From the IMG/VR virus record IMGVR_UViG_2850808358_000005: a DNA stretch of 64,000 bases; one strand, 5' to 3'. The position numbers and the translations under genes were made by a program. Under the pieces are notes generated by a model. The model was not told the origin of the DNA and searched no databases. It saw nothing but the letters and a program-made list of their open reading frames with translations. This stretch comes from a virus (Duplodnaviria > Heunggongvirae > Uroviricota > Caudoviricetes). Positions within the stretch are counted from its first letter, which is position 1. Every line of letters begins with the position of its first letter. This document shows, piece after piece, positions 4,983 through 53,822 of the stretch.

Positions 4983-5523
4983 CTTTATCCCTCACAACAT
5001 GGGTAATAGCTCTGCGATATTGCCCGGTGTCAATTAATGGTTTCGCCAGATCGGTTCCGGGAGATTCGCCAGCAGCGCGCCGGGCAAGTTCCAGTGTTGC
5101 CCCCTTGCGCCCCCGACGAGCCCGGGCTTCAACAGTGCTGTCAGCAAGCGGCGTAAAGCCGGTAATGGTCATGTAACGCCTGACGCCATTAGCGGCCAGC
5201 GTTCCGGCACGGTTGAGTGCGCGTTCTGCTCCCGCAGCATTACCATCAAGTGCAGCCTGCGCCGCGGCTTTGAGCTGCGGCACCGTCTGCTCTTCTGCCG
5301 ATTTAACGCCGGGGACCAGGTGAGGTCGTGGCGGGATGTTCTGCTCTGGTGAGCCGTATTCGTTGAGGTAACCGATGCCCGCATTACCAAACGGAACATC
5401 ATCCCGCCCGCTGTCTTCCGAAGGGATGCCGACCAGCACATCTTTTTTGGTTAACGACCTGAGCGCATCCAGAATGGCCTTAGCGTTATCCACCCTCGTT
5501 GTTACACCGCTTTTGAAACTCAT
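4969..5523 (-). CDS. phage structural protein, hypothetical
   Basis: 184-aa ORF in the head-tail operon. Confidence 0.35.
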
Positions 5524-15712: not shown

Positions 15713-15787
<75 letters not shown>

Positions 15788-15790
15788 ATA

Positions 15791-15866
<76 letters not shown>

Positions 15867-15868
15867 GC

Positions 15869-15945
15869 TGGCCCACCACCGAGGACTCGAACCTCGCACC
15901 GTCAACTTAGAAGGTTGATGCTCTATCCGGATGAGCTAGTGGTGG
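15869..15945 (-). tRNA. tRNA-Arg (anticodon UCU, reads rare AGA)
   Basis: Anticodon arm TCAAC-CTTCTAA-GTTGA; T-arm GGTTCGAGTCC; CCA encoded; phage argN/argO-like. Confidence 0.8.
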
Positions 15946-15946
15946 T

Positions 15947-16023
15947 TGGTGGCCCTTGCTGGACTTGAACCAGCGACCTGGCGATTATGAGTCGCTCGCT
16001 CTGACCAACTGAGCTAAAGGGCC
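15947..16023 (-). tRNA. tRNA-Ile2-like (anticodon CAU; could be elongator Met)
   Basis: Closely resembles E. coli ileX (GGCCC.TTAGCTCAG...GCGACTCATAATCGC...GGTTCAAGTCCAGC); anticodon loop CUCAUAA. Confidence 0.7.
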
Positions 16024-22570: not shown

Positions 22571-22960
22571 ATGGACATGAGAAAAAAGCAATACGACACC
22601 CCGCTGGCAGAAAGGTTAGATACGATCTCGCAACAGCATCACTTAAGCGGTTCAGATTTAGCGCGTATCGCTGGTGTAGGTCGCTCATCAGTTAACGCAT
22701 GGAAAAAAAGAGGAACAATCAGTAAAGATTCCGCGGCAAAAATTGCAGAAGCTACAAACGTATCCCTTTCCTGGTTGCTGACAGGAAAAGAAGATAGCAA
22801 TAGAGAGACACTTGATGATGATGAGAAAGCCCTGCTTGATGTTTACAGAAATCTGCCACCTGTAGAACGCAGAAATATGCTTGCAGCTTTTCAAATGCGA
22901 CTTCAAAAACTGACTGAATTTTATTCAGAATACGTTGACCCAGCAACGCGTCAAAAATAA
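22571..22960 (+). CDS. cI-like prophage repressor (XRE-family HTH, RacR-like)
   Basis: HTH motif LSGSDLARIAGVGRSSVNAWKK; divergently arranged with the cro-like gene. Confidence 0.6.
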   Translation: MDMRKKQYDTPLAERLDTISQQHHLSGSDLARIAGVGRSSVNAWKKRGTISKDSAAKIAEATNVSLSWLLTGKEDSNRETLDDDEKALLDVYRNLPPVERRNMLAAFQMRLQKLTEFYSEYVDPATRQK

Positions 22961-23779: not shown

Positions 23780-24250
23780 TCAAAAATCATTATTGAAATT
23801 GTAGTCCATGAGATACTCATTTTTACAGGAGGGACATTGAGTTTTCGTATATTTATCGCCTTCCTCGATAGGGAAAGGTTGCAATATAGATATTGCTCTC
23901 TTCGCAAAACATTCTGGACAAAAATACATGGTAATCTTGCCAGAGCTAGTATTGCACTGTCTGGCATACACAATCGTTCCAGTAATCAATTGGCGAGGTT
24001 CGCAGTCTTCACTTTGGAACTTAAACTTTTCTATCTCCGTGAGTTTTGCTTTGAGCGCAGCCTCATTGCTTTTAGAGATTGTCAGCTCATCAATGAGAGA
24101 CAAATATTCAAGCTGAATGCTTGACAACTTAGAGTTTATTTCAGACACAGCGCGATCAACCTCAGCCTGAGTTTTTGCTTCATTGAATAATTTTAACATT
24201 GATGCAGTCTCTTTGAGAGCTGACATCGCTAATGATAGATCAAACATCAC
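23780..24250 (-). CDS. hypothetical coiled-coil protein with C-terminal zinc-ribbon (CPEC...CPSC)
   Basis: 156-aa ORF in an AT-rich block on the strand opposite the early-left operon. Confidence 0.4.
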   Translation of the reverse strand: MMFDLSLAMSALKETASMLKLFNEAKTQAEVDRAVSEINSKLSSIQLEYLSLIDELTISKSNEAALKAKLTEIEKFKFQSEDCEPRQLITGTIVYARQCNTSSGKITMYFCPECFAKRAISILQPFPIEEGDKYTKTQCPSCKNEYLMDYNFNNDF

Positions 24251-25011
24251 TTGCTCACTCTTCTTATTGTTGGGGTATTCAGATTATACAAATTTCTTGT
24301 TGTTGGGGAATAACAGGAACCACCTCGCCTGACGTGGTTAAAAGCAGGCACACAACACGAAAGCGCACGGCGAGGTAGCTGGTCATAGATAGCCTGTCGT
24401 TAAATTTTCGCCGACCGTGCGCTTCCGGTTGTGGCAATCCGCGAAATGGCGCGGCGGTAAGTATGGCGGGGTTTCTCCGTTCCTCGCAAATGTCCACCGG
24501 GTTGTCAGGTTGACCATACGATTAAGTGACAACCCGCCACAACATCTCCAGATTGAGTTGTTGGCGATGAAACTTTTGGCGGCATCAGTTTTGCTCTGCC
24601 GCCCTTTTTAAAGTGAATTTTGTGATGCGGTGAATGCGGCTGAGCGCACGCGGAACAGTTAAAACAGTAAGGAAAATCCCTTATTCCGGCGTTAATTGTT
24701 AACTGGTTAACGTCACCTGGAGGCACCAGGCACCGCATCAACAAAATTTATTTAATTAATTATGCGCGAATTAACCGTTATTCGTGCAGGGGATTTCCAC
24801 ACCTGAAATCCGCCGCTCTTTAACAATATGAACCGGGCTGTCACGTAAACCACAATTCGGGGTGCCGCCGAATGCCCTGATATATCCGCAGAACCGGAAC
24901 GCAGGGTCGGGATGTGACTTTTTGAACAAACCAAACTGGCGGCTTCCGCCACTTGCGAGAAAACTAAATTCAGACTAAATTATAACTCCCAATGAAAAAA
25001 GGAACACCCAT

Positions 25012-25245
25012 ATGAAAATAGAAACTATCAGCTACATCAAGAAAAACGCAGCCTCACTGGACCTGGCGGAACCCATTCTTGTCACGCAGAATGGTGTTCC
25101 TGCATACGTAATTGAATCCTATGAGCAGCAACAGGAACGCGAGAACGCTATTGCGTTACTGAAACTTCTCACTATTTCAGAAAACGACAAGTCTGAAGGT
25201 CGCGTGTTTTCAAAAGCACAGTTGCTGGATAGCTTTAACAACTAA
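25012..25245 (+). CDS. Phd/YefM-family antitoxin (putative)
   Basis: 77-aa protein with the family N-terminal pattern (ISYIKKNAASLDLAEPILVTQNGVPAYVIESYE); 8-nt gap to the toxin gene. Confidence 0.55.
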   Translation: MKIETISYIKKNAASLDLAEPILVTQNGVPAYVIESYEQQQERENAIALLKLLTISENDKSEGRVFSKAQLLDSFNN

Positions 25246-25253
25246 GGTTAACT

Positions 25254-25574
25254 ATGCAGGTTGAATACACACTTACCGCCAGAACAAGCCTTGAGCAAAT
25301 TGCCGACCATCTCCGGAGTAACGACATTGACCCACGCCCTGTAATAGCAGAAATTCTTGAGCGATTTGAAACAAGAGTTACTGCATTCCCGTCCGGATGT
25401 CAGTTATGCCCGGAGTTGCTCAAGCTTGGCGTGGCTAAATACAGAGAGTGCAACACACCAGAAGGCTACAGAGTGCTGTACTCTGTCGAGGAGGATATTA
25501 TCACTGCACACGTGATTCTTTCCCAACGTCAGGATATTAAACAGTTACTGTTCAGACGATTGATCAGAGTTTAG
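25254..25574 (+). CDS. RelE/ParE-family toxin (putative)
   Basis: 106-aa protein with C-terminal EGYRVLYSVEEDIITAHVILSQRQD typical of the RelE/ParE fold; terminator follows. Confidence 0.5.
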   Translation: MQVEYTLTARTSLEQIADHLRSNDIDPRPVIAEILERFETRVTAFPSGCQLCPELLKLGVAKYRECNTPEGYRVLYSVEEDIITAHVILSQRQDIKQLLFRRLIRV

Positions 25575-25594
25575 CAATTACACATTTAGTAGCG

Positions 25595-25624
25595 CCCCTG
25601 TCCCCACCAGTTCAGGGGTTTTTG
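25595..25624 (+). terminator. rho-independent terminator after the toxin-antitoxin pair
   Basis: CCCCTG...CAGGGG stem followed by a T-run. Confidence 0.5.
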
Positions 25625-25893
25625 CTTTCTGATATCCGGGATATTGACAAAGCAACCTGCATTGTTGCAAGATGATCGCACTAGAAACAGTTAAGCGGTC
25701 ATCCGCACCCGATAGCCTTGCGGCTTTTTTATGCCTGAAATACGGCACATCCGTACAAAGATCGGGTGGAGAGGCGTAATACAATACCCGTAAGGGGAAT
25801 ATGCCCGGAGCTTCTTAACTGGCTCTAGTTGACACCCGATCACCAGCTACTAACTGGTAATCGCAGACTAAAACAGTTAAGGAGGCCACTAAA

Positions 25894-26448
25894 ATGGCTA
25901 CTATCCCTGCCCTTTCTCACCCTGACGTAACCATCGAAAATGGTCGCGCTGTCACTACGTCTGTTGCTATTGCGGAGTTCTTCGGCAAACGCCACGAACG
26001 TGTGCTGGATAAAATTCGCAATTTAGACTGCTCATCAAATTTTAACGAACACAATTTTGTGTCGGTCACCTACACCGACACCAAAGGCGAAAAACGCCCA
26101 ATGTACCAAATCACCAAAAACGGCTTCGTTTTCCTGGTGATGGGCTTCACTGGCAAAAAAGCCGCCGCATTCAAAGAAGCCTACATTGCTGAGTTCGACC
26201 GCATGGAGGCCGAACTGCGCCAGAATAATACCCTGCCCGCTGACAAAATTATCCCGGGAGATGGCCGTACTCTCGTTGTTCACTTCGACGAACACGGCAA
26301 CATCAGATTCACCGAAACCGTTCCTGACGGTGCAATGGTCTGTACCCTGGATACTTTCCAGTTTTATCTGGAAAAACAGGGGTGGGCTCTTGTAAACCGG
26401 AGCGCAATTAAAAACATGACCGTAGAGCAGTTGCTTTCCTTAAAATAA
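25894..26448 (+). CDS. Rha-family phage regulatory protein
   Basis: N-terminal Rha-like domain (HPDVTIENGRAVTTSVAIAEFFGKRHERVLDKIRNL). Confidence 0.6.
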   Translation: MATIPALSHPDVTIENGRAVTTSVAIAEFFGKRHERVLDKIRNLDCSSNFNEHNFVSVTYTDTKGEKRPMYQITKNGFVFLVMGFTGKKAAAFKEAYIAEFDRMEAELRQNNTLPADKIIPGDGRTLVVHFDEHGNIRFTETVPDGAMVCTLDTFQFYLEKQGWALVNRSAIKNMTVEQLLSLK

Positions 26449-26458
26449 AAATGGAGCT

Positions 26459-26746
26459 ATGGATATGAACCCCATGCTTGATTATTGTTTTACACCTGCC
26501 CTCAGGCAGACCATCAGTCATACCGGGATTAAAAAATGGCTGTGGAGAATCAGAAAAATTCTCCAGCAAAAAGGTGACCCGGATTTAATACAATGTGATT
26601 ACCATCTCTGCAATAAACAGTTTTTACCTGAAAAAGCTTTTACTGGCGAGCTTATTTATATGCATGGAAACATGATTGCCAGAAAGAAACGAAAATATTG
26701 CAGTGCAGCTTGTGCCGAAAAAGACAAGATGGCACACGAACTTTAA
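26459..26746 (+). CDS. hypothetical Cys/His-rich small protein
   Basis: 95 aa; CDYHLCNK and YCSAAC motifs; AT-rich. Confidence 0.3.
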   Translation: MDMNPMLDYCFTPALRQTISHTGIKKWLWRIRKILQQKGDPDLIQCDYHLCNKQFLPEKAFTGELIYMHGNMIARKKRKYCSAACAEKDKMAHEL

Positions 26747-26772
26747 TTAACTGAATATTCGAAACTGAATTT

Positions 26773-27117
26773 ATGCCAGCAATGGCAGGGATTCACTCAA
26801 CCTTAAAAAAGGAAACAGCAATGAGCATTATTGAATGTGAAATTGAACTTGATGTTATTAACGATTCTCTCGCCGAATTTAAATGTGGGAATACATTACA
26901 TAGTTTCATTCAGATTTCCCAAAAAGAAAACGTCACGGTAATTATTGATGACGGTTACGTTCTGGGAACATTTGATTGTTGTGTATGTGCCATTAAAGAA
27001 ATTGCATTACTCACAGCTCGCATTGAAGAGGCTGACAAGAAATACGGTATCAGTTATCAACGACTGAAAGAACTCTCTCATATCGCATCATCAGTTCGTT
27101 TCTTTTATGCAATCTGA
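26773..27117 (+). CDS. hypothetical protein
   Basis: 114 aa; contains FDCCVC; AT-rich; start may be the internal Met MSIIECE. Confidence 0.3.
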   Translation: MPAMAGIHSTLKKETAMSIIECEIELDVINDSLAEFKCGNTLHSFIQISQKENVTVIIDDGYVLGTFDCCVCAIKEIALLTARIEEADKKYGISYQRLKELSHIASSVRFFYAI

Positions 27118-27140: not shown

Positions 27141-29009
27141 ATGAGCACCGATAAACAAGTTTACCCACTGTATTACGAAGCAAAAAATGACAAAGTAAGA
27201 AAACGCCTCGGTATTAAAGGCGGTTTTTACTGGGCTGAAGCGAAAAAATTATCCATTGCCATCTCCCGTGGTGCTGTTGCGATTGACGATGCTGGCTACG
27301 ATGAAGATGACTTTAAAAAACCTGTTCGCGTCAATTTGCCCGTTGTTGATGACCTCCCACCAGAAGGCGTGTTTGATACGGAATTCTGCAACCGTTACGA
27401 AAAAGGCGGGGAAGATGGCATCACAATGGTATTTATCGCATCTTCTCCCTCTGTTCAGGACAAACCAGCCAGCACTGACAATACCAACGTCAACGGCGAA
27501 GACATGACAGAAATTGAGGAGAACATGCTCCTGCCAGTTTCCGGTCAGGAACTGCCCATTCGTTGGCTTGCGCAACACGGCAGCGAAAAACCGGTAACGC
27601 ACGTTTCACGCGACGAACTCCAGGCATTACACATTGCTCGGGATGAAGAACTACCGGCTGTTACTGCTCTGGCTGTTTCGCATAAAACCAGTCTGCTCGA
27701 CCCGCTGGAGATTCGCGACCTCCACAAACTCGTGCGTGATACTGACAAAGTTTTCCCTAATCCTGGCAATTCAAATCTGGGACTGATGACTGCTTTTTTC
27801 GAAGCATATCTGGATGCCAACTACACCGATCGCGGTCTGCTGACAAAAGAGTGGATGAAAGGAAATCGTGTTTCGCGTATCACTCGCACGGCTTCCGGTG
27901 CTAATGCTGGCGGCGGGAACCTCACCGATCGCGGCGAAGGTTTCGTTCACGATCTGACGTCACTGGCGCGCGACGTAGCCACTGGCGTACTGGCTCGTTC
28001 AATGGACGTGGACATTTATAACCTTCATCCGGCACACGCTAAACGTGTCGAGGAAATTATCGCTGAAAATAAACCGCCCTTTTCTGTTTTCCGCGACAAA
28101 TTCATCACCATGCCTGGCGGGATGGATTATTCCCGCGCCATCGTGGTTGCGTCAGTGAAAGAAGCACCGATTGGTATCGAGGTCATCCCCGCGCACGTCA
28201 CTGAATATCTGAACAAGGTACTGACTGAAACCGATCATGCCAACCCTGATCCGGAAATCGTGGATATTGCCTGCGGTCGCTCCTCTGCCCCGATGCCGCA
28301 ACGTGTAACAGAAGAAGGAAAACAGGATGCAACTGAACATCATCAGGACACGCAGCCGCTGGATGCTCAGTCACAGGTAAATGCTGTTGATGCGAAATAT
28401 CAGAAACTGCGGACAGAACTCCATGAAGCCCGGAAAAACATTCCGCCCAAAAATCCTGTCGATGCAGACAAATTACTGGCTGCCTCTCGCGGAGAATTTG
28501 TTGAAGGGATTAGCGACCCGAATGATTCGAAATGGATTCCCGGTCATCATATCTCCTCAAATGAAGTCAAAAAAACGGAAAATGAAGTGCGACAGACTGA
28601 AGATAAACAGCACCAGAACAGCGAACCGGAGGAGGGAACACCCTGCAATCTGACTGGCGAGGATAACTGCCCTGACTGTGGCGCGGTGATGGGAGACGCA
28701 ACTTATCAGGAAACTTTTGACGAAAAAAAACCAGATGAAGCACAGGAAGAAGAGCCGAAGAAAACGGAAAAAGCTGATGATTTGTTACCGGAGAACGCTG
28801 GCAGCGATCAGCATAATGATAGCAATAATGAAACTGGCGAAGATGAACTCAACTGGAAAAGACAGGTGTTGATTGCGGCGGTTTACGGTTTATGTGCGAA
28901 TCCTGCGTGCATAGCCTATGCGCCTGCAATCCCTGACATCGCAATGATGATTGCCAACAAGCTTGAAAATTTTGGAGTGACCAGTGATGAGCGCTTACCC
29001 GATTTTTGA
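27141..29009 (+). CDS. RecE-like protein (resembles the N-terminal region of exodeoxyribonuclease VIII; C-terminal nuclease domain not evident)
   Basis: 622 aa; Rac-like context; acidic low-complexity tail with a [10 protein letters not shown] motif; family call from memory. Confidence 0.4.
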
Positions 29010-29283
29010 TCGTATTGAAGAAATGGCATGGGCTCGTCACTACCAGCAGATCGTTCGTGAAGAAAAAGAAACGGAACTGGCGGACGACCTGGAAAAAGGT
29101 CTGCCTCAGCACCTGTTTGAATCGCTCTGCATCGACCATTTGCAACGCCACGGTGCCAATAAACAGGCAATCAGCCACGCATTTGATGATGATGTTGAGT
29201 TTCAGGAGCGCATGGCAGAACACATCCGGTACATGGCTGAAACCATTGCCCACCACCAGGTTGATATTGATTTGGAGGACTAA
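28984..29283 (+). CDS. hypothetical protein
   Basis: 99-aa ORF overlapping the RecE-like stop. Confidence 0.3.
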
Positions 29284-29692
29284 AATCTATGGCGCTTTTT
29301 CAACGAGCAATAAACACACAGGCCTATCTAAAAGCAGGAATTATGGGGTTTGCTGGCGACGGCAAAACCTACACAGCAAGCGAACTGGCTATTGGTCTGG
29401 TAATGCTTATGCGGCAACGGGGAATTGAAGCTGGTAACCGCCCGGTAATGTTTCTGGACACAGAAACAGGCTCTGACTGGGTTAAACCCCGCTTTGATGC
29501 GGAAAATATCGAATTATTTACGGCAAAAACCCGCTCGTTTGTTGATCTGCTTGAAGCCATTAATGAAGCGGAAAGCAGCGGTTCCGTAATGATCATCGAC
29601 TCCATCAGTCACTTCTGGACCGGATTATGCGACGAGTATGCCAGACGCCGAAACCGTAAACGAGGACTGGAATTTTCAGACTGGGCGTGGCT

Positions 29693-53511: not shown

Positions 53512-53586
<75 letters not shown>

Positions 53587-53589
53587 ATA

Positions 53590-53665
<76 letters not shown>

Positions 53666-53667
53666 GC

Positions 53668-53744
53668 TGGCCCACCACCGAGGACTCGAACCTCGCACCG
53701 TCAACTTAGAAGGTTGATGCTCTATCCGGATGAGCTAGTGGTGG
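53668..53744 (-). tRNA. tRNA-Arg (UCU), second copy
   Basis: Identical to 15869..15945. Confidence 0.8.
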
Positions 53745-53745
53745 T

Positions 53746-53822
53746 TGGTGGCCCTTGCTGGACTTGAACCAGCGACCTGGCGATTATGAGTCGCTCGCTC
53801 TGACCAACTGAGCTAAAGGGCC
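53746..53822 (-). tRNA. tRNA-Ile2-like (CAU), second copy
   Basis: Identical to 15947..16023. Confidence 0.7.

Follow-up and report, generated by a model that had tools for sequence, protein, structure and literature searches.

A YdaE-type zinc-finger fusion and a possible functional analogue of RacC encoded upstream of a RecE-like gene in a Rac-like enterobacterial prophage

Background

The early-left region of the Rac prophage of Escherichia coli K-12, with the gene order kilR, ydaE, racC, recE, offers the closest described counterpart of the locus considered here, a pair of small genes, which we term ORF1 and ORF2 (open reading frames 1 and 2), in a 64,000-nucleotide stretch of viral DNA (IMG/VR record IMGVR_UViG_2850808358_000005, Caudoviricetes; hereafter the window). 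The two genes lie side by side on the plus strand between the remnant of a rha gene and a RecE-like gene. ORF1 is a fusion of a YdaE-family zinc finger to a basic module that is a separate gene elsewhere, and ORF2 belongs to phrog_2434, an uncharacterised family that is strictly linked to recE-type genes and takes the position occupied by racC in Rac.

The Rac genes provide a functional precedent for such an arrangement. RecE of Rac sets off the toxin-antitoxin systems retron-Sen2 and retron-Eco9 by breaking down their msDNA (multicopy single-stranded DNA) (Bobonis et al., bioRxiv 10.1101/2020.06.22.160242; summarised in PMC11951105), and RacC blocks the retron toxin RcaT, so that racC and recE form a blocker-trigger pair for this toxin (Bobonis et al., 10.1101/2020.06.22.160242). 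Salmonella Typhimurium natively carries retron-Sen2 (10.1101/2020.06.22.160242), and in its prophage Gifsy-1 an ORF2-family gene, not racC, precedes recE. Once the Rac repressor has been displaced, ydaE and racC are derepressed 40-70-fold along with kilR (PMC11014345). K-12 YdaE (b4526, 56 amino acids, annotated 'zinc-binding protein') is described, in the account of Blindauer 2002 given in PMC6892955, as an SmtA-like finger that holds one zinc via four cysteines, and it is entered as a 'putative Zn chaperone' in the same paper. A ydaE knock-out shows lower susceptibility to killing by Agrobacterium via its type VI secretion system (T6SS), with partial complementation (PMC7012810).

Anatomy of the gene pair

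A sequence-only reading of this interval had described two adjacent ORFs of 95 and 114 amino acids, containing the cysteine motifs CDYHLC, YCSAAC and FDCCVC, AT-rich relative to their flanks and situated between Rha and RecE-like genes. All of this is borne out by the present analysis, and the pair can be laid out as follows:

26453-26456, plus strand: GGAG, Shine-Dalgarno sequence of ORF1, read off the sequence
26459-26746, plus strand: ORF1, 95 amino acids as listed, probably 93 amino acids from the ATG at 26465
26465-26587, plus strand: N-terminal module of ORF1, about 41 amino acids, basic, isoelectric point (pI) 9.9, MNPMLDYCFTPALRQTISHTGIKKWLWRIRKILQQKGDPDL; homologous to stand-alone micro-genes of about 38 amino acids (phrog_22279)
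26588-26743, plus strand: YdaE zinc-finger domain of ORF1, residues 44-95, with the four cysteines C46, C51, C81 and C85 and the tail AEKDKMAHEL
26773-27117, plus strand: ORF2, 114 amino acids as listed, probably 98 amino acids from the ATG at 26821
26809-26815, plus strand: AAGGAAA, Shine-Dalgarno sequence of the short form of ORF2, read off the sequence

Both genes probably start later than listed. The GGAG element lies 8 nucleotides (nt) before the ATG at 26465 and just 2 nt before the ATG at 26459, and this spacing, together with the MNP start of most homologues and the start called by PGAP in E. coli strain VL40, favors the 93-residue form of ORF1. Similarly, the AAGGAAA element lies 5 nt 5' of the ATG at 26821, with its core AGGA (26810-26813) 7 nt 5' of it; this spacing, the start of most homologues and the lack of conservation of the N-terminal extension between subfamilies favor the 98-residue form of ORF2.

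The G+C content (GC) of ORF1 is 39.2% and that of ORF2 36.8% (0.30 at third codon positions), compared to 48.3% in rha, 49.2% in the RecE-like gene and 48.8% in the whole window. The same low values are seen in the homologous region of K-12, where ydaE (36.8%) and racC (39.1%) stand against 49.4% in recE. Comparisons with homologues by the Nei-Gojobori method, at synonymous divergences (dS) of 0.5-1.1 for both genes, gave ratios of nonsynonymous to synonymous divergence (dN/dS) of 0.12-0.18 for ORF1 and 0.14-0.21 for ORF2, indicating that both are genes under purifying selection. Searches of the interval spanning the two genes for RNA families and for promoter-like or terminator-like sites found none. 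The identity and anatomy of both genes can be regarded as secure, with very little room for doubt.

ORF1: a YdaE-family zinc finger joined to a basic N-terminal module

The sequence-only reading could assign neither gene to a known family. This does not hold for ORF1, which recovered the NCBIfam model NF041288 (YdaE_coli) with 85.3 bits against a cut-off of 35 bits (expect value, E, 2.2e-24; residues 44-95) and phrog_6751 with E 1.2e-45. Its homologues bear a precomputed match to Pfam PF27493 'YdaE', and its C-terminal 52 residues are 56% identical to K-12 YdaE (E 2e-18). The motif CDYHLC supplies Cys46 and Cys51 (codons TGT at 26594-26596 and TGC at 26609-26611) and YCSAAC supplies Cys81 and Cys85; these four positions are conserved or invariant in the family, with the spacing CX4C (or CX2C) ... 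CX3C. These matches place ORF1 clearly within the YdaE family, and by virtue of this membership it is a putative zinc-binding protein. The sequence-only reading had held that homology to a lambda or Rac early protein of established function would speak against its suggestion of host-takeover or anti-defence genes; the homologue found, Rac YdaE, goes half-way towards this, its zinc binding being established but not its biological role.

K-12 YdaE resembles ORF1 in the CX4C...CX3C arrangement, in the AEKDxMAHEL tail, in its low GC and in its early-left position upstream of recE. It differs in lacking the 41-residue basic N-terminal module and in having kilR rather than rha as its upstream neighbor. 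Further afield, the sole sequence match of K-12 YdaE in the PDB, and one obtained for this protein only, was the zinc-finger core of the cyanobacterial metallothionein SmtA (1JJD), at a weak E of 0.24, with the cysteines aligned such that the SmtA segment KCA..C...SKAI...YYCSEACA coincides with the YdaE ligands. Unlike SmtA and BmtA, YdaE lacks the extra Cys and His residues for a Zn4 cluster, has a longer insert between its Cys pairs and is encoded by a prophage, and it scored 15 bits for the SmtA/BmtA-type metallothionein domain (PF02069, Metallothio_Pro), below the 33-bit cut-off. The abstract of the Blindauer study is reportedly in agreement with YdaE being an SmtA-like Cys4 finger with a single zinc.

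A hidden Markov model (HMM) of the N-terminal module recovered separate micro-ORFs located directly 5' of ydaE, namely STM2630.1n of Gifsy-1 (E 2e-6) and those in loci L006, L007 and L009 of our collection; Gifsy-1 apart, these micro-ORFs come from prophages of Raoultella, Citrobacter and Enterobacter. STM2630.1n in turn matches phrog_22279 (E 3.7e-30) and positions 8-43 of phrog_6751 (E 1.5e-5). Given that the module is a gene of its own elsewhere, ORF1 is a fusion of two small early genes, and the long YdaE variants are likewise gene fusions. With the module, the whole of ORF1 is basic (pI 9.3, net charge about +7), compared to the nearly neutral K-12 YdaE (pI 7.7). A resemblance of the module's 'KKW' to the Kil peptide of lambda (PF06301) was pursued and rejected, there being no Pfam match and an hhalign probability of 0.7% over 10 columns.

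Both genes of the window have homologous cassettes in well-known phages. In Gifsy-1 the genes STM2630.1n, STM2630 and STM2631 encode the N-terminal module, YdaE and an ORF2-family protein, followed by RecE and RecT; unlike in the window, the first two are separate, overlapping genes. In HK225, gp36 and gp35 are YdaE and the ORF2-family protein, again followed by RecE and RecT, and the N-terminal module is absent. In both these phages kil comes first in the order.

ORF2: a conserved family without enzyme-like features

ORF2 likewise turned out to belong to a catalogued family, phrog_2434 (E 1.9e-40, residues 12-110 on profile positions 1-99 of 100), whose function is listed as uncharacterised. 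Searches placed 17 protein clusters close to ORF2 and about 75 at a distance (39 representatives by exhaustive HMMER searches, 75 clusters by profile search). The members of the family, nearly all of 88-122 amino acids, come from Escherichia, Shigella, Salmonella, Citrobacter, Enterobacter, Pantoea, Mangrovibacter and related genera, and phrog_2434 is confined to prophages of Enterobacterales. No Pfam domain was detected in either the close or the distant clusters, and ORF2 found no match in sequence searches of Pfam, NCBIfam and the PDB. Neither ORF1 nor ORF2 matched the defence and anti-defence profiles of PADLOC-DB at E up to 1.

The AlphaFold2 model of ORF2 (mean predicted local distance difference test score 87.4, from a 35-sequence alignment) shows antiparallel strands at residues 8-12, 17-22, 26-32, 38-42 and 46-51, followed by helices at 54-75 and 79-97. 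The predicted fold is thus a five-stranded β-meander packed on two helices, devoid of enzyme-like features; fold searches with the model returned no enzyme-like match, and the best hit in the BFVD viral library had E 0.05. The family is typified by the motif TV(I/V)(L/I)DGGYxLGxFxCxxCA. In ORF2 the FDCCVC motif supplies Cys69, Cys70 and Cys72 of the 114-residue form, and its CCVC (26977-26988) forms a CxxC where the first helix begins (C53 and C56 in the 98-residue form), which in the family is mostly CPxC and most often CPHC. Among 85 members, C22 is retained in 80%, C53 in 88%, C56 in 84% and a C-terminal His in 58%. The latter, seen for example in the endings TVH and TIH, is missing from the subfamily of the window's ORF2, which ends in FFYAI. 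The homologues in Gifsy-1 and HK225 are 36-38% identical to ORF2 and have CPHC instead of CCVC, beside a full-length RecE; STM2631 ends in the C-terminal His, while HK225 gp35 ends in AVS. A 107-residue protein, unrelated to ORF2, that occupies the corresponding slot in locus L017 (4362-4685) likewise ends in His (VMH).

Several identities suggested by these features were rejected. A metal or redox site in ORF2 is possible but is not required by the family: the cysteines are conserved and not invariant, and the absence of the His from the window's subfamily speaks against a strict metal site. A thioredoxin-like CxxC oxidoreductase is contradicted by a fold that is not thioredoxin-like and by retention of the CxxC cysteines in just 84-88% of members. 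A DNA mimic would be in keeping with the acidic nature of ORF2 (pI 4.7), but the Gifsy-1 homologue is neutral.

The entire family carries the NCBI name 'DNA breaking-rejoining protein'. The same name is borne by unrelated, YdaE-like proteins of 51 amino acids encoded directly 5' of RecE in Klebsiella phages (L184, 3492-3647; L185, 3477-3632), which means that one label now spans a pair of unrelated families. At 98 residues ORF2 is much shorter than the catalytic domains of such enzymes (tyrosine recombinases and type IB topoisomerases, about 170 residues or more), and it gave no profile or fold match to them. As nothing in its sequence or fold supports the name, it is best seen as a propagated label.

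The slot before recE and its alternative occupants

Co-occurrence across prophages, which the sequence-only reading had proposed as a check, revealed a strict association. An ORF2-family gene was recovered in 80 IMG/VR loci, and these genes group into 14 clusters at 90% identity and into 5 at 60%. A RecE-like gene starts 36-359 nt downstream in all 77 loci that could be assessed, the other three ending at a contig edge. The same succession is seen in nine genome loci from six genera, where a RecE-type gene (Exonuc_VIII, phrog_607/26058 or phrog_2489) comes next after the ORF2-family gene. The family was never found elsewhere in a prophage or on conjugative plasmids.

When contigs were instead retrieved by means of YdaE, the slot before recE proved to have several kinds of occupants. 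In 80 such contigs it held RacC in 65, the ORF2 family in 10 and phrog_2016 in one, and three of the contigs were disrupted by insertion sequence (IS) elements. There are also loci with nothing in the slot: in locus L019 a fused YdaE directly precedes a YdfE/Rv2179c-type exonuclease, and the Klebsiella phage YdaE directly precedes RecE. RacC and ORF2 thus share the slot between ydaE and recE, and they are further alike in size (91 versus 98 amino acids), in AT-richness and in their partners: both RacC and the window-type ORF2 (type 1) occur with two kinds of RecE N-terminus, E0 and E1, and with three of YdaE, Y0, Y2f and Y3f. RacC differs in lacking the CxxC, and its family is very narrow, with all phage matches at least 94% identical, as opposed to about 75 clusters from many genera in the ORF2 family. 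A cross-tabulation revealed no co-variation of the slot protein with the subtype of either the RecE N-terminus or YdaE. This free re-assortment suggests that ORF2 and RacC behave as alternative alleles of one slot.

One ORF2 subfamily occurs without an upstream YdaE. Here, in 13-17 loci, a Cys-rich protein of 62-84 amino acids (CxxC ... CxxC) is encoded between the ORF2-family and RecE-like genes, as in the following examples:

L008, 2796-3050: Cys-rich protein
L011, 4224-4478: Cys-rich protein
L012, 4269-4457: Cys-rich protein
L014, 4269-4478: Cys-rich protein

A relationship of this protein to YdaE was considered and rejected, as it gave no match to the YdaE HMM, to Pfam or to PHROGs.

Prophage setting

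The immediate neighbors of the pair are these:

25894-26448, plus strand: 3' part of rha (Pfam Phage_pRha, E 1.4e-30), its 5' end replaced by an insertion
27141-29009, plus strand: RecE-like ORF, 622 amino acids (Pfam Exonuc_VIII, E 1.1e-36, residues 52-189)
28984-29283, plus strand: lambda-type gam (Pfam Gam, E 8.1e-56), overlapping the end of the RecE-like ORF

ORF1 and ORF2 are co-directional with rha, the RecE-like gene, gam and the genes for an AAA ATPase, xis and int. A cI-type repressor gene is located at 22571-22960, and ydaT is on the opposite strand. The pair belongs to the early-left operon, under repressor control, of a Rac/lambdoid-type prophage. E. coli FDAARGOS_943, a close relative, has the ORF1-ORF2 pair at 100% identity, and there the order is helix-turn-helix (HTH) repressor, DUF1391, ydfB, ydfC, rha, YdaE-family gene, 'DNA breaking-rejoining protein', RecE (pseudogene), Gam, AAA ATPase, DUF1187, xis, int. 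The relatives L001 and L183 have the order cI-like HTH, DUF1391, ydfB, ydfC, rha, YdaE, ORF2, RecE, Gam, AAA ATPase, xis, int. Among complete E. coli genomes, just 10 of 5426 have most of the ORF1-ORF2 pair.

The RecE-like ORF aligns with model positions 1-596 of 877 of NF007259, below the cut-off, and covers exonuclease VIII from its N-terminus through its middle, without the nuclease domain; its relatives are marked 'missing C-terminus' by PGAP. A similar arrangement is seen in L017, where the RecE N-terminal part (661 amino acids) is followed by Gam, RecT and YqaJ, and on this account the RecE N-terminal part may be a stand-alone protein, not a dead gene. A terminator-like hairpin (27204-27222, minus strand) lies just within the 5' end of the RecE-like ORF, with no Rfam match there. 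In Salmonella the antisense small RNA (sRNA) IsrB-2 has been placed between STM2631 and sbcA (recE) (PMC2330248), an interval that corresponds to 5288-5415 in the Gifsy-1 locus L004.

The intact relative of rha in L001 encodes 283 amino acids. In the window the 5' end of the gene is replaced (24250-25893) by a segment with a Phd/YefM-ParE toxin-antitoxin pair (25012-25245 and 25254-25574), and a match to Rfam sRNA-Xcc1 (25760-25849, 67 bits) lies directly before the truncated gene. This arrangement is shared with E. coli VL40 at 99.9% identity, where the rha copy is flagged by PGAP as 'missing N-terminus' and as a pseudogene. A minus-strand ORF of 156 amino acids (23780-24250), with a coiled-coil-like N-terminal half and CPEC...CPSC, has no Pfam match and is a 'hypothetical protein' in VL40. 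Beyond gam, an IS3-family element (29736-30893, minus strand, transposase of 385 amino acids) interrupts, after 140 codons, an AAA_24-type ATPase gene (29289-29711) that encodes 365 amino acids in relatives, and the same type of IS disrupts ORF1 itself in the IMG/VR locus L106.

A CssrB match and the many IS elements suggest a Shigella-like host. The window also contains duplications, namely the RalA antitoxin sRNA (31700-31879 and 61654-61832), near-identical clusters of four tRNAs (15716-16023 and 53515-53822) and matches to sok, isrK and C4, in light of which it seems to span two related prophage segments.

Functional implications and alternative explanations

The position of ORF2, its interchangeability with RacC, its predicted non-enzymatic fold and the published precedent together point, tentatively and with somewhat less than even confidence, to ORF2 being an analogue of RacC that blocks a defence effector. 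On this view ORF2 would act by stoichiometric binding and would be produced early once the prophage is induced. An abortive-infection system would be set off by the recombination nuclease, of RecE type, that the phage itself encodes, and ORF2 would neutralise the effector of that system; the model case is the retron toxin RcaT, triggered by RecE through degradation of msDNA and blocked by RacC. YdaE is itself a conserved, separately re-assorting neighbor of exonuclease genes, and ORF1, that is YdaE with its N-terminal module, could be a second small binder kept beside the same nuclease gene and re-assorting on its own. It may bind nucleic acid or protein and might support or protect the nuclease module, but any specific role for ORF1 is to be viewed as doubtful. 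A broader proposal, which we consider possible but on the unlikely side, is that phrog_2434 (ORF2, STM2631) is an unrecognised counter-defence family, without sequence relationship to RacC, whose members neutralise the effector of an abortive-infection system sensing RecE-type nucleases, be it retron RcaT or another system. The slot before recE would then be a general locus for a blocker placed beside its trigger, with RacC, phrog_2434, phrog_2016 and a 92-residue protein as non-homologous occupants, and YdaE with the 38-residue module would belong to the same protective cassette.

Several observations weigh against an analogy with RacC. The likeness rests on position and not on homology, as no sequence similarity between ORF2 and RacC could be detected: BLASTP gave E 3.3, hhalign a probability of 5% and RacC 1.8 bits on the family HMM, a score reached by 153 of 2000 shuffles, the RacC family being too narrow for a useful profile of its own. 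PADLOC and profile searches found no homology of ORF2 to any known anti-defence protein. The RecE-like ORF of this prophage is without the msDNA-degrading nuclease domain, and thus the presumed trigger itself is absent here. Related prophages of E. coli and Salmonella make up the bulk of the viral loci, whose counts are accordingly not independent events, and the conserved position might equally have been produced by simple mosaic linkage or by a role in recombination. YdaE, moreover, goes unmentioned among the blockers or triggers of the retron screen (10.1101/2020.06.22.160242). The proposal of the sequence-only reading that these might be anti-defence or host-takeover genes thus gains for ORF2 an indirect footing, through the RacC slot between ydaE and recE, and lacks the support that homology to RacC would lend. 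As a guess for ORF2, an anti-defence role is plausible by analogy, on more specific grounds than those of the earlier reading.

Small early proteins encoded beside recombination genes are also known in the form of lambda Gam, of Kil in lambda and Rac and of Arf/Abc, encoded beside the recombinase of P22, none of which has a sequence relation to ORF1 or ORF2 (a true Gam is separately encoded in the window at 28984-29283). YdaE and the ORF2-family protein might, on the pattern of lambda Gam and P22 Arf/Abc, be recombination accessory factors that work with RecE and RecT, by binding the long RecE N-terminal region or DNA ends or by inhibiting a host nuclease. This is rather unlikely in our estimate, although much of the context would fit it. 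Throughout five diverged ORF2 subfamilies, and with several types of RecE N-terminus, both genes lie directly 5' of a RecE-type gene; YdaE alone directly precedes RecE in the Klebsiella phages and the YdfE/Rv2179c-type exonuclease in L019; and the linkage holds even where just the N-terminal part of RecE remains, as in the window and L017. The basic character of ORF1 (pI 9.3) and its SmtA-type finger are in line with it as well, the SmtA finger reportedly having been described by Blindauer as GATA-like. However, the slot protein is dispensable and replaceable, with RacC, phrog_2016, the 92-residue protein or nothing accompanying the same RecE types, and its subtype does not co-vary with the RecE N-terminus. 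Recombineering works with RecE and RecT alone, and this prophage already has gam.

The free re-assortment of unrelated slot alternatives would also be compatible with early-operon host-takeover or anti-defence genes, such as anti-restriction genes or inhibitors of a different host protein, that act independently of RecE, the junction before recE being a tolerated insertion point for AT-rich accessory genes. The AT-richness relative to the flanks, which is kept in homologues, the small size and non-enzymatic nature of the proteins and the T6SS phenotype of the ydaE knock-out (PMC7012810) speak in its favor. The confinement of the ORF2 family to within 359 nt of a RecE-type gene in every one of the 77 assessable loci, never having been found elsewhere, and the lack of matches to known defence or anti-defence families speak against it, and we consider it unlikely. 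It is quite improbable that ORF1 is a small nucleic-acid-binding regulator of the early operon or of host genes, made up of a zinc finger and a basic helix, with ORF2 as unrelated cargo. While the net charge of about +7, the pI of 9.3 and the SmtA-type finger would suit such a function, K-12 YdaE is nearly neutral (pI 7.7) without the basic module, ORF1 matched no DNA-binding family in Pfam, and YdaE is described as having one zinc site, a structural Cys4 site. Finally, the database labels might be right, in which case ORF2 would be a DNA breaking-rejoining enzyme akin to recombinases or topoisomerases and YdaE would serve zinc homeostasis as a zinc chaperone or metallothionein, as the name given across the ORF2 family by NCBI and the entry 'putative Zn chaperone' in PMC6892955 would have it. 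This is very improbable indeed, since Pfam, NCBIfam and the PDB gave no recombinase or topoisomerase match for the 98-residue ORF2 and the name is also attached to the unrelated 51-residue proteins of the Klebsiella phages, and since YdaE has just the four finger cysteines, scores 15 versus 33 bits for Metallothio_Pro and is a repressed prophage gene.

Conclusions

Both genes were already present in databases, one of them under a misleading name, 'DNA breaking-rejoining protein', which is corrected here. What is new is the recognition of ORF1 as a fusion, the strict linkage of phrog_2434 to recE and the positional equivalence of ORF2 to RacC. The finding on ORF2 is a testable lead rather than a surprise; should the analogy prove wrong, these would be ordinary conserved prophage genes of uncharacterised function. 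If, on the other hand, the ORF2-family proteins are RacC-like blockers, this would explain why a set of unrelated small genes is kept beside RecE, and the junction before recE would become a predictable place to mine for anti-defence proteins in enterobacterial prophages, including Gifsy-1 and Gifsy-2 of Salmonella, a host that carries a RecE-triggered retron.

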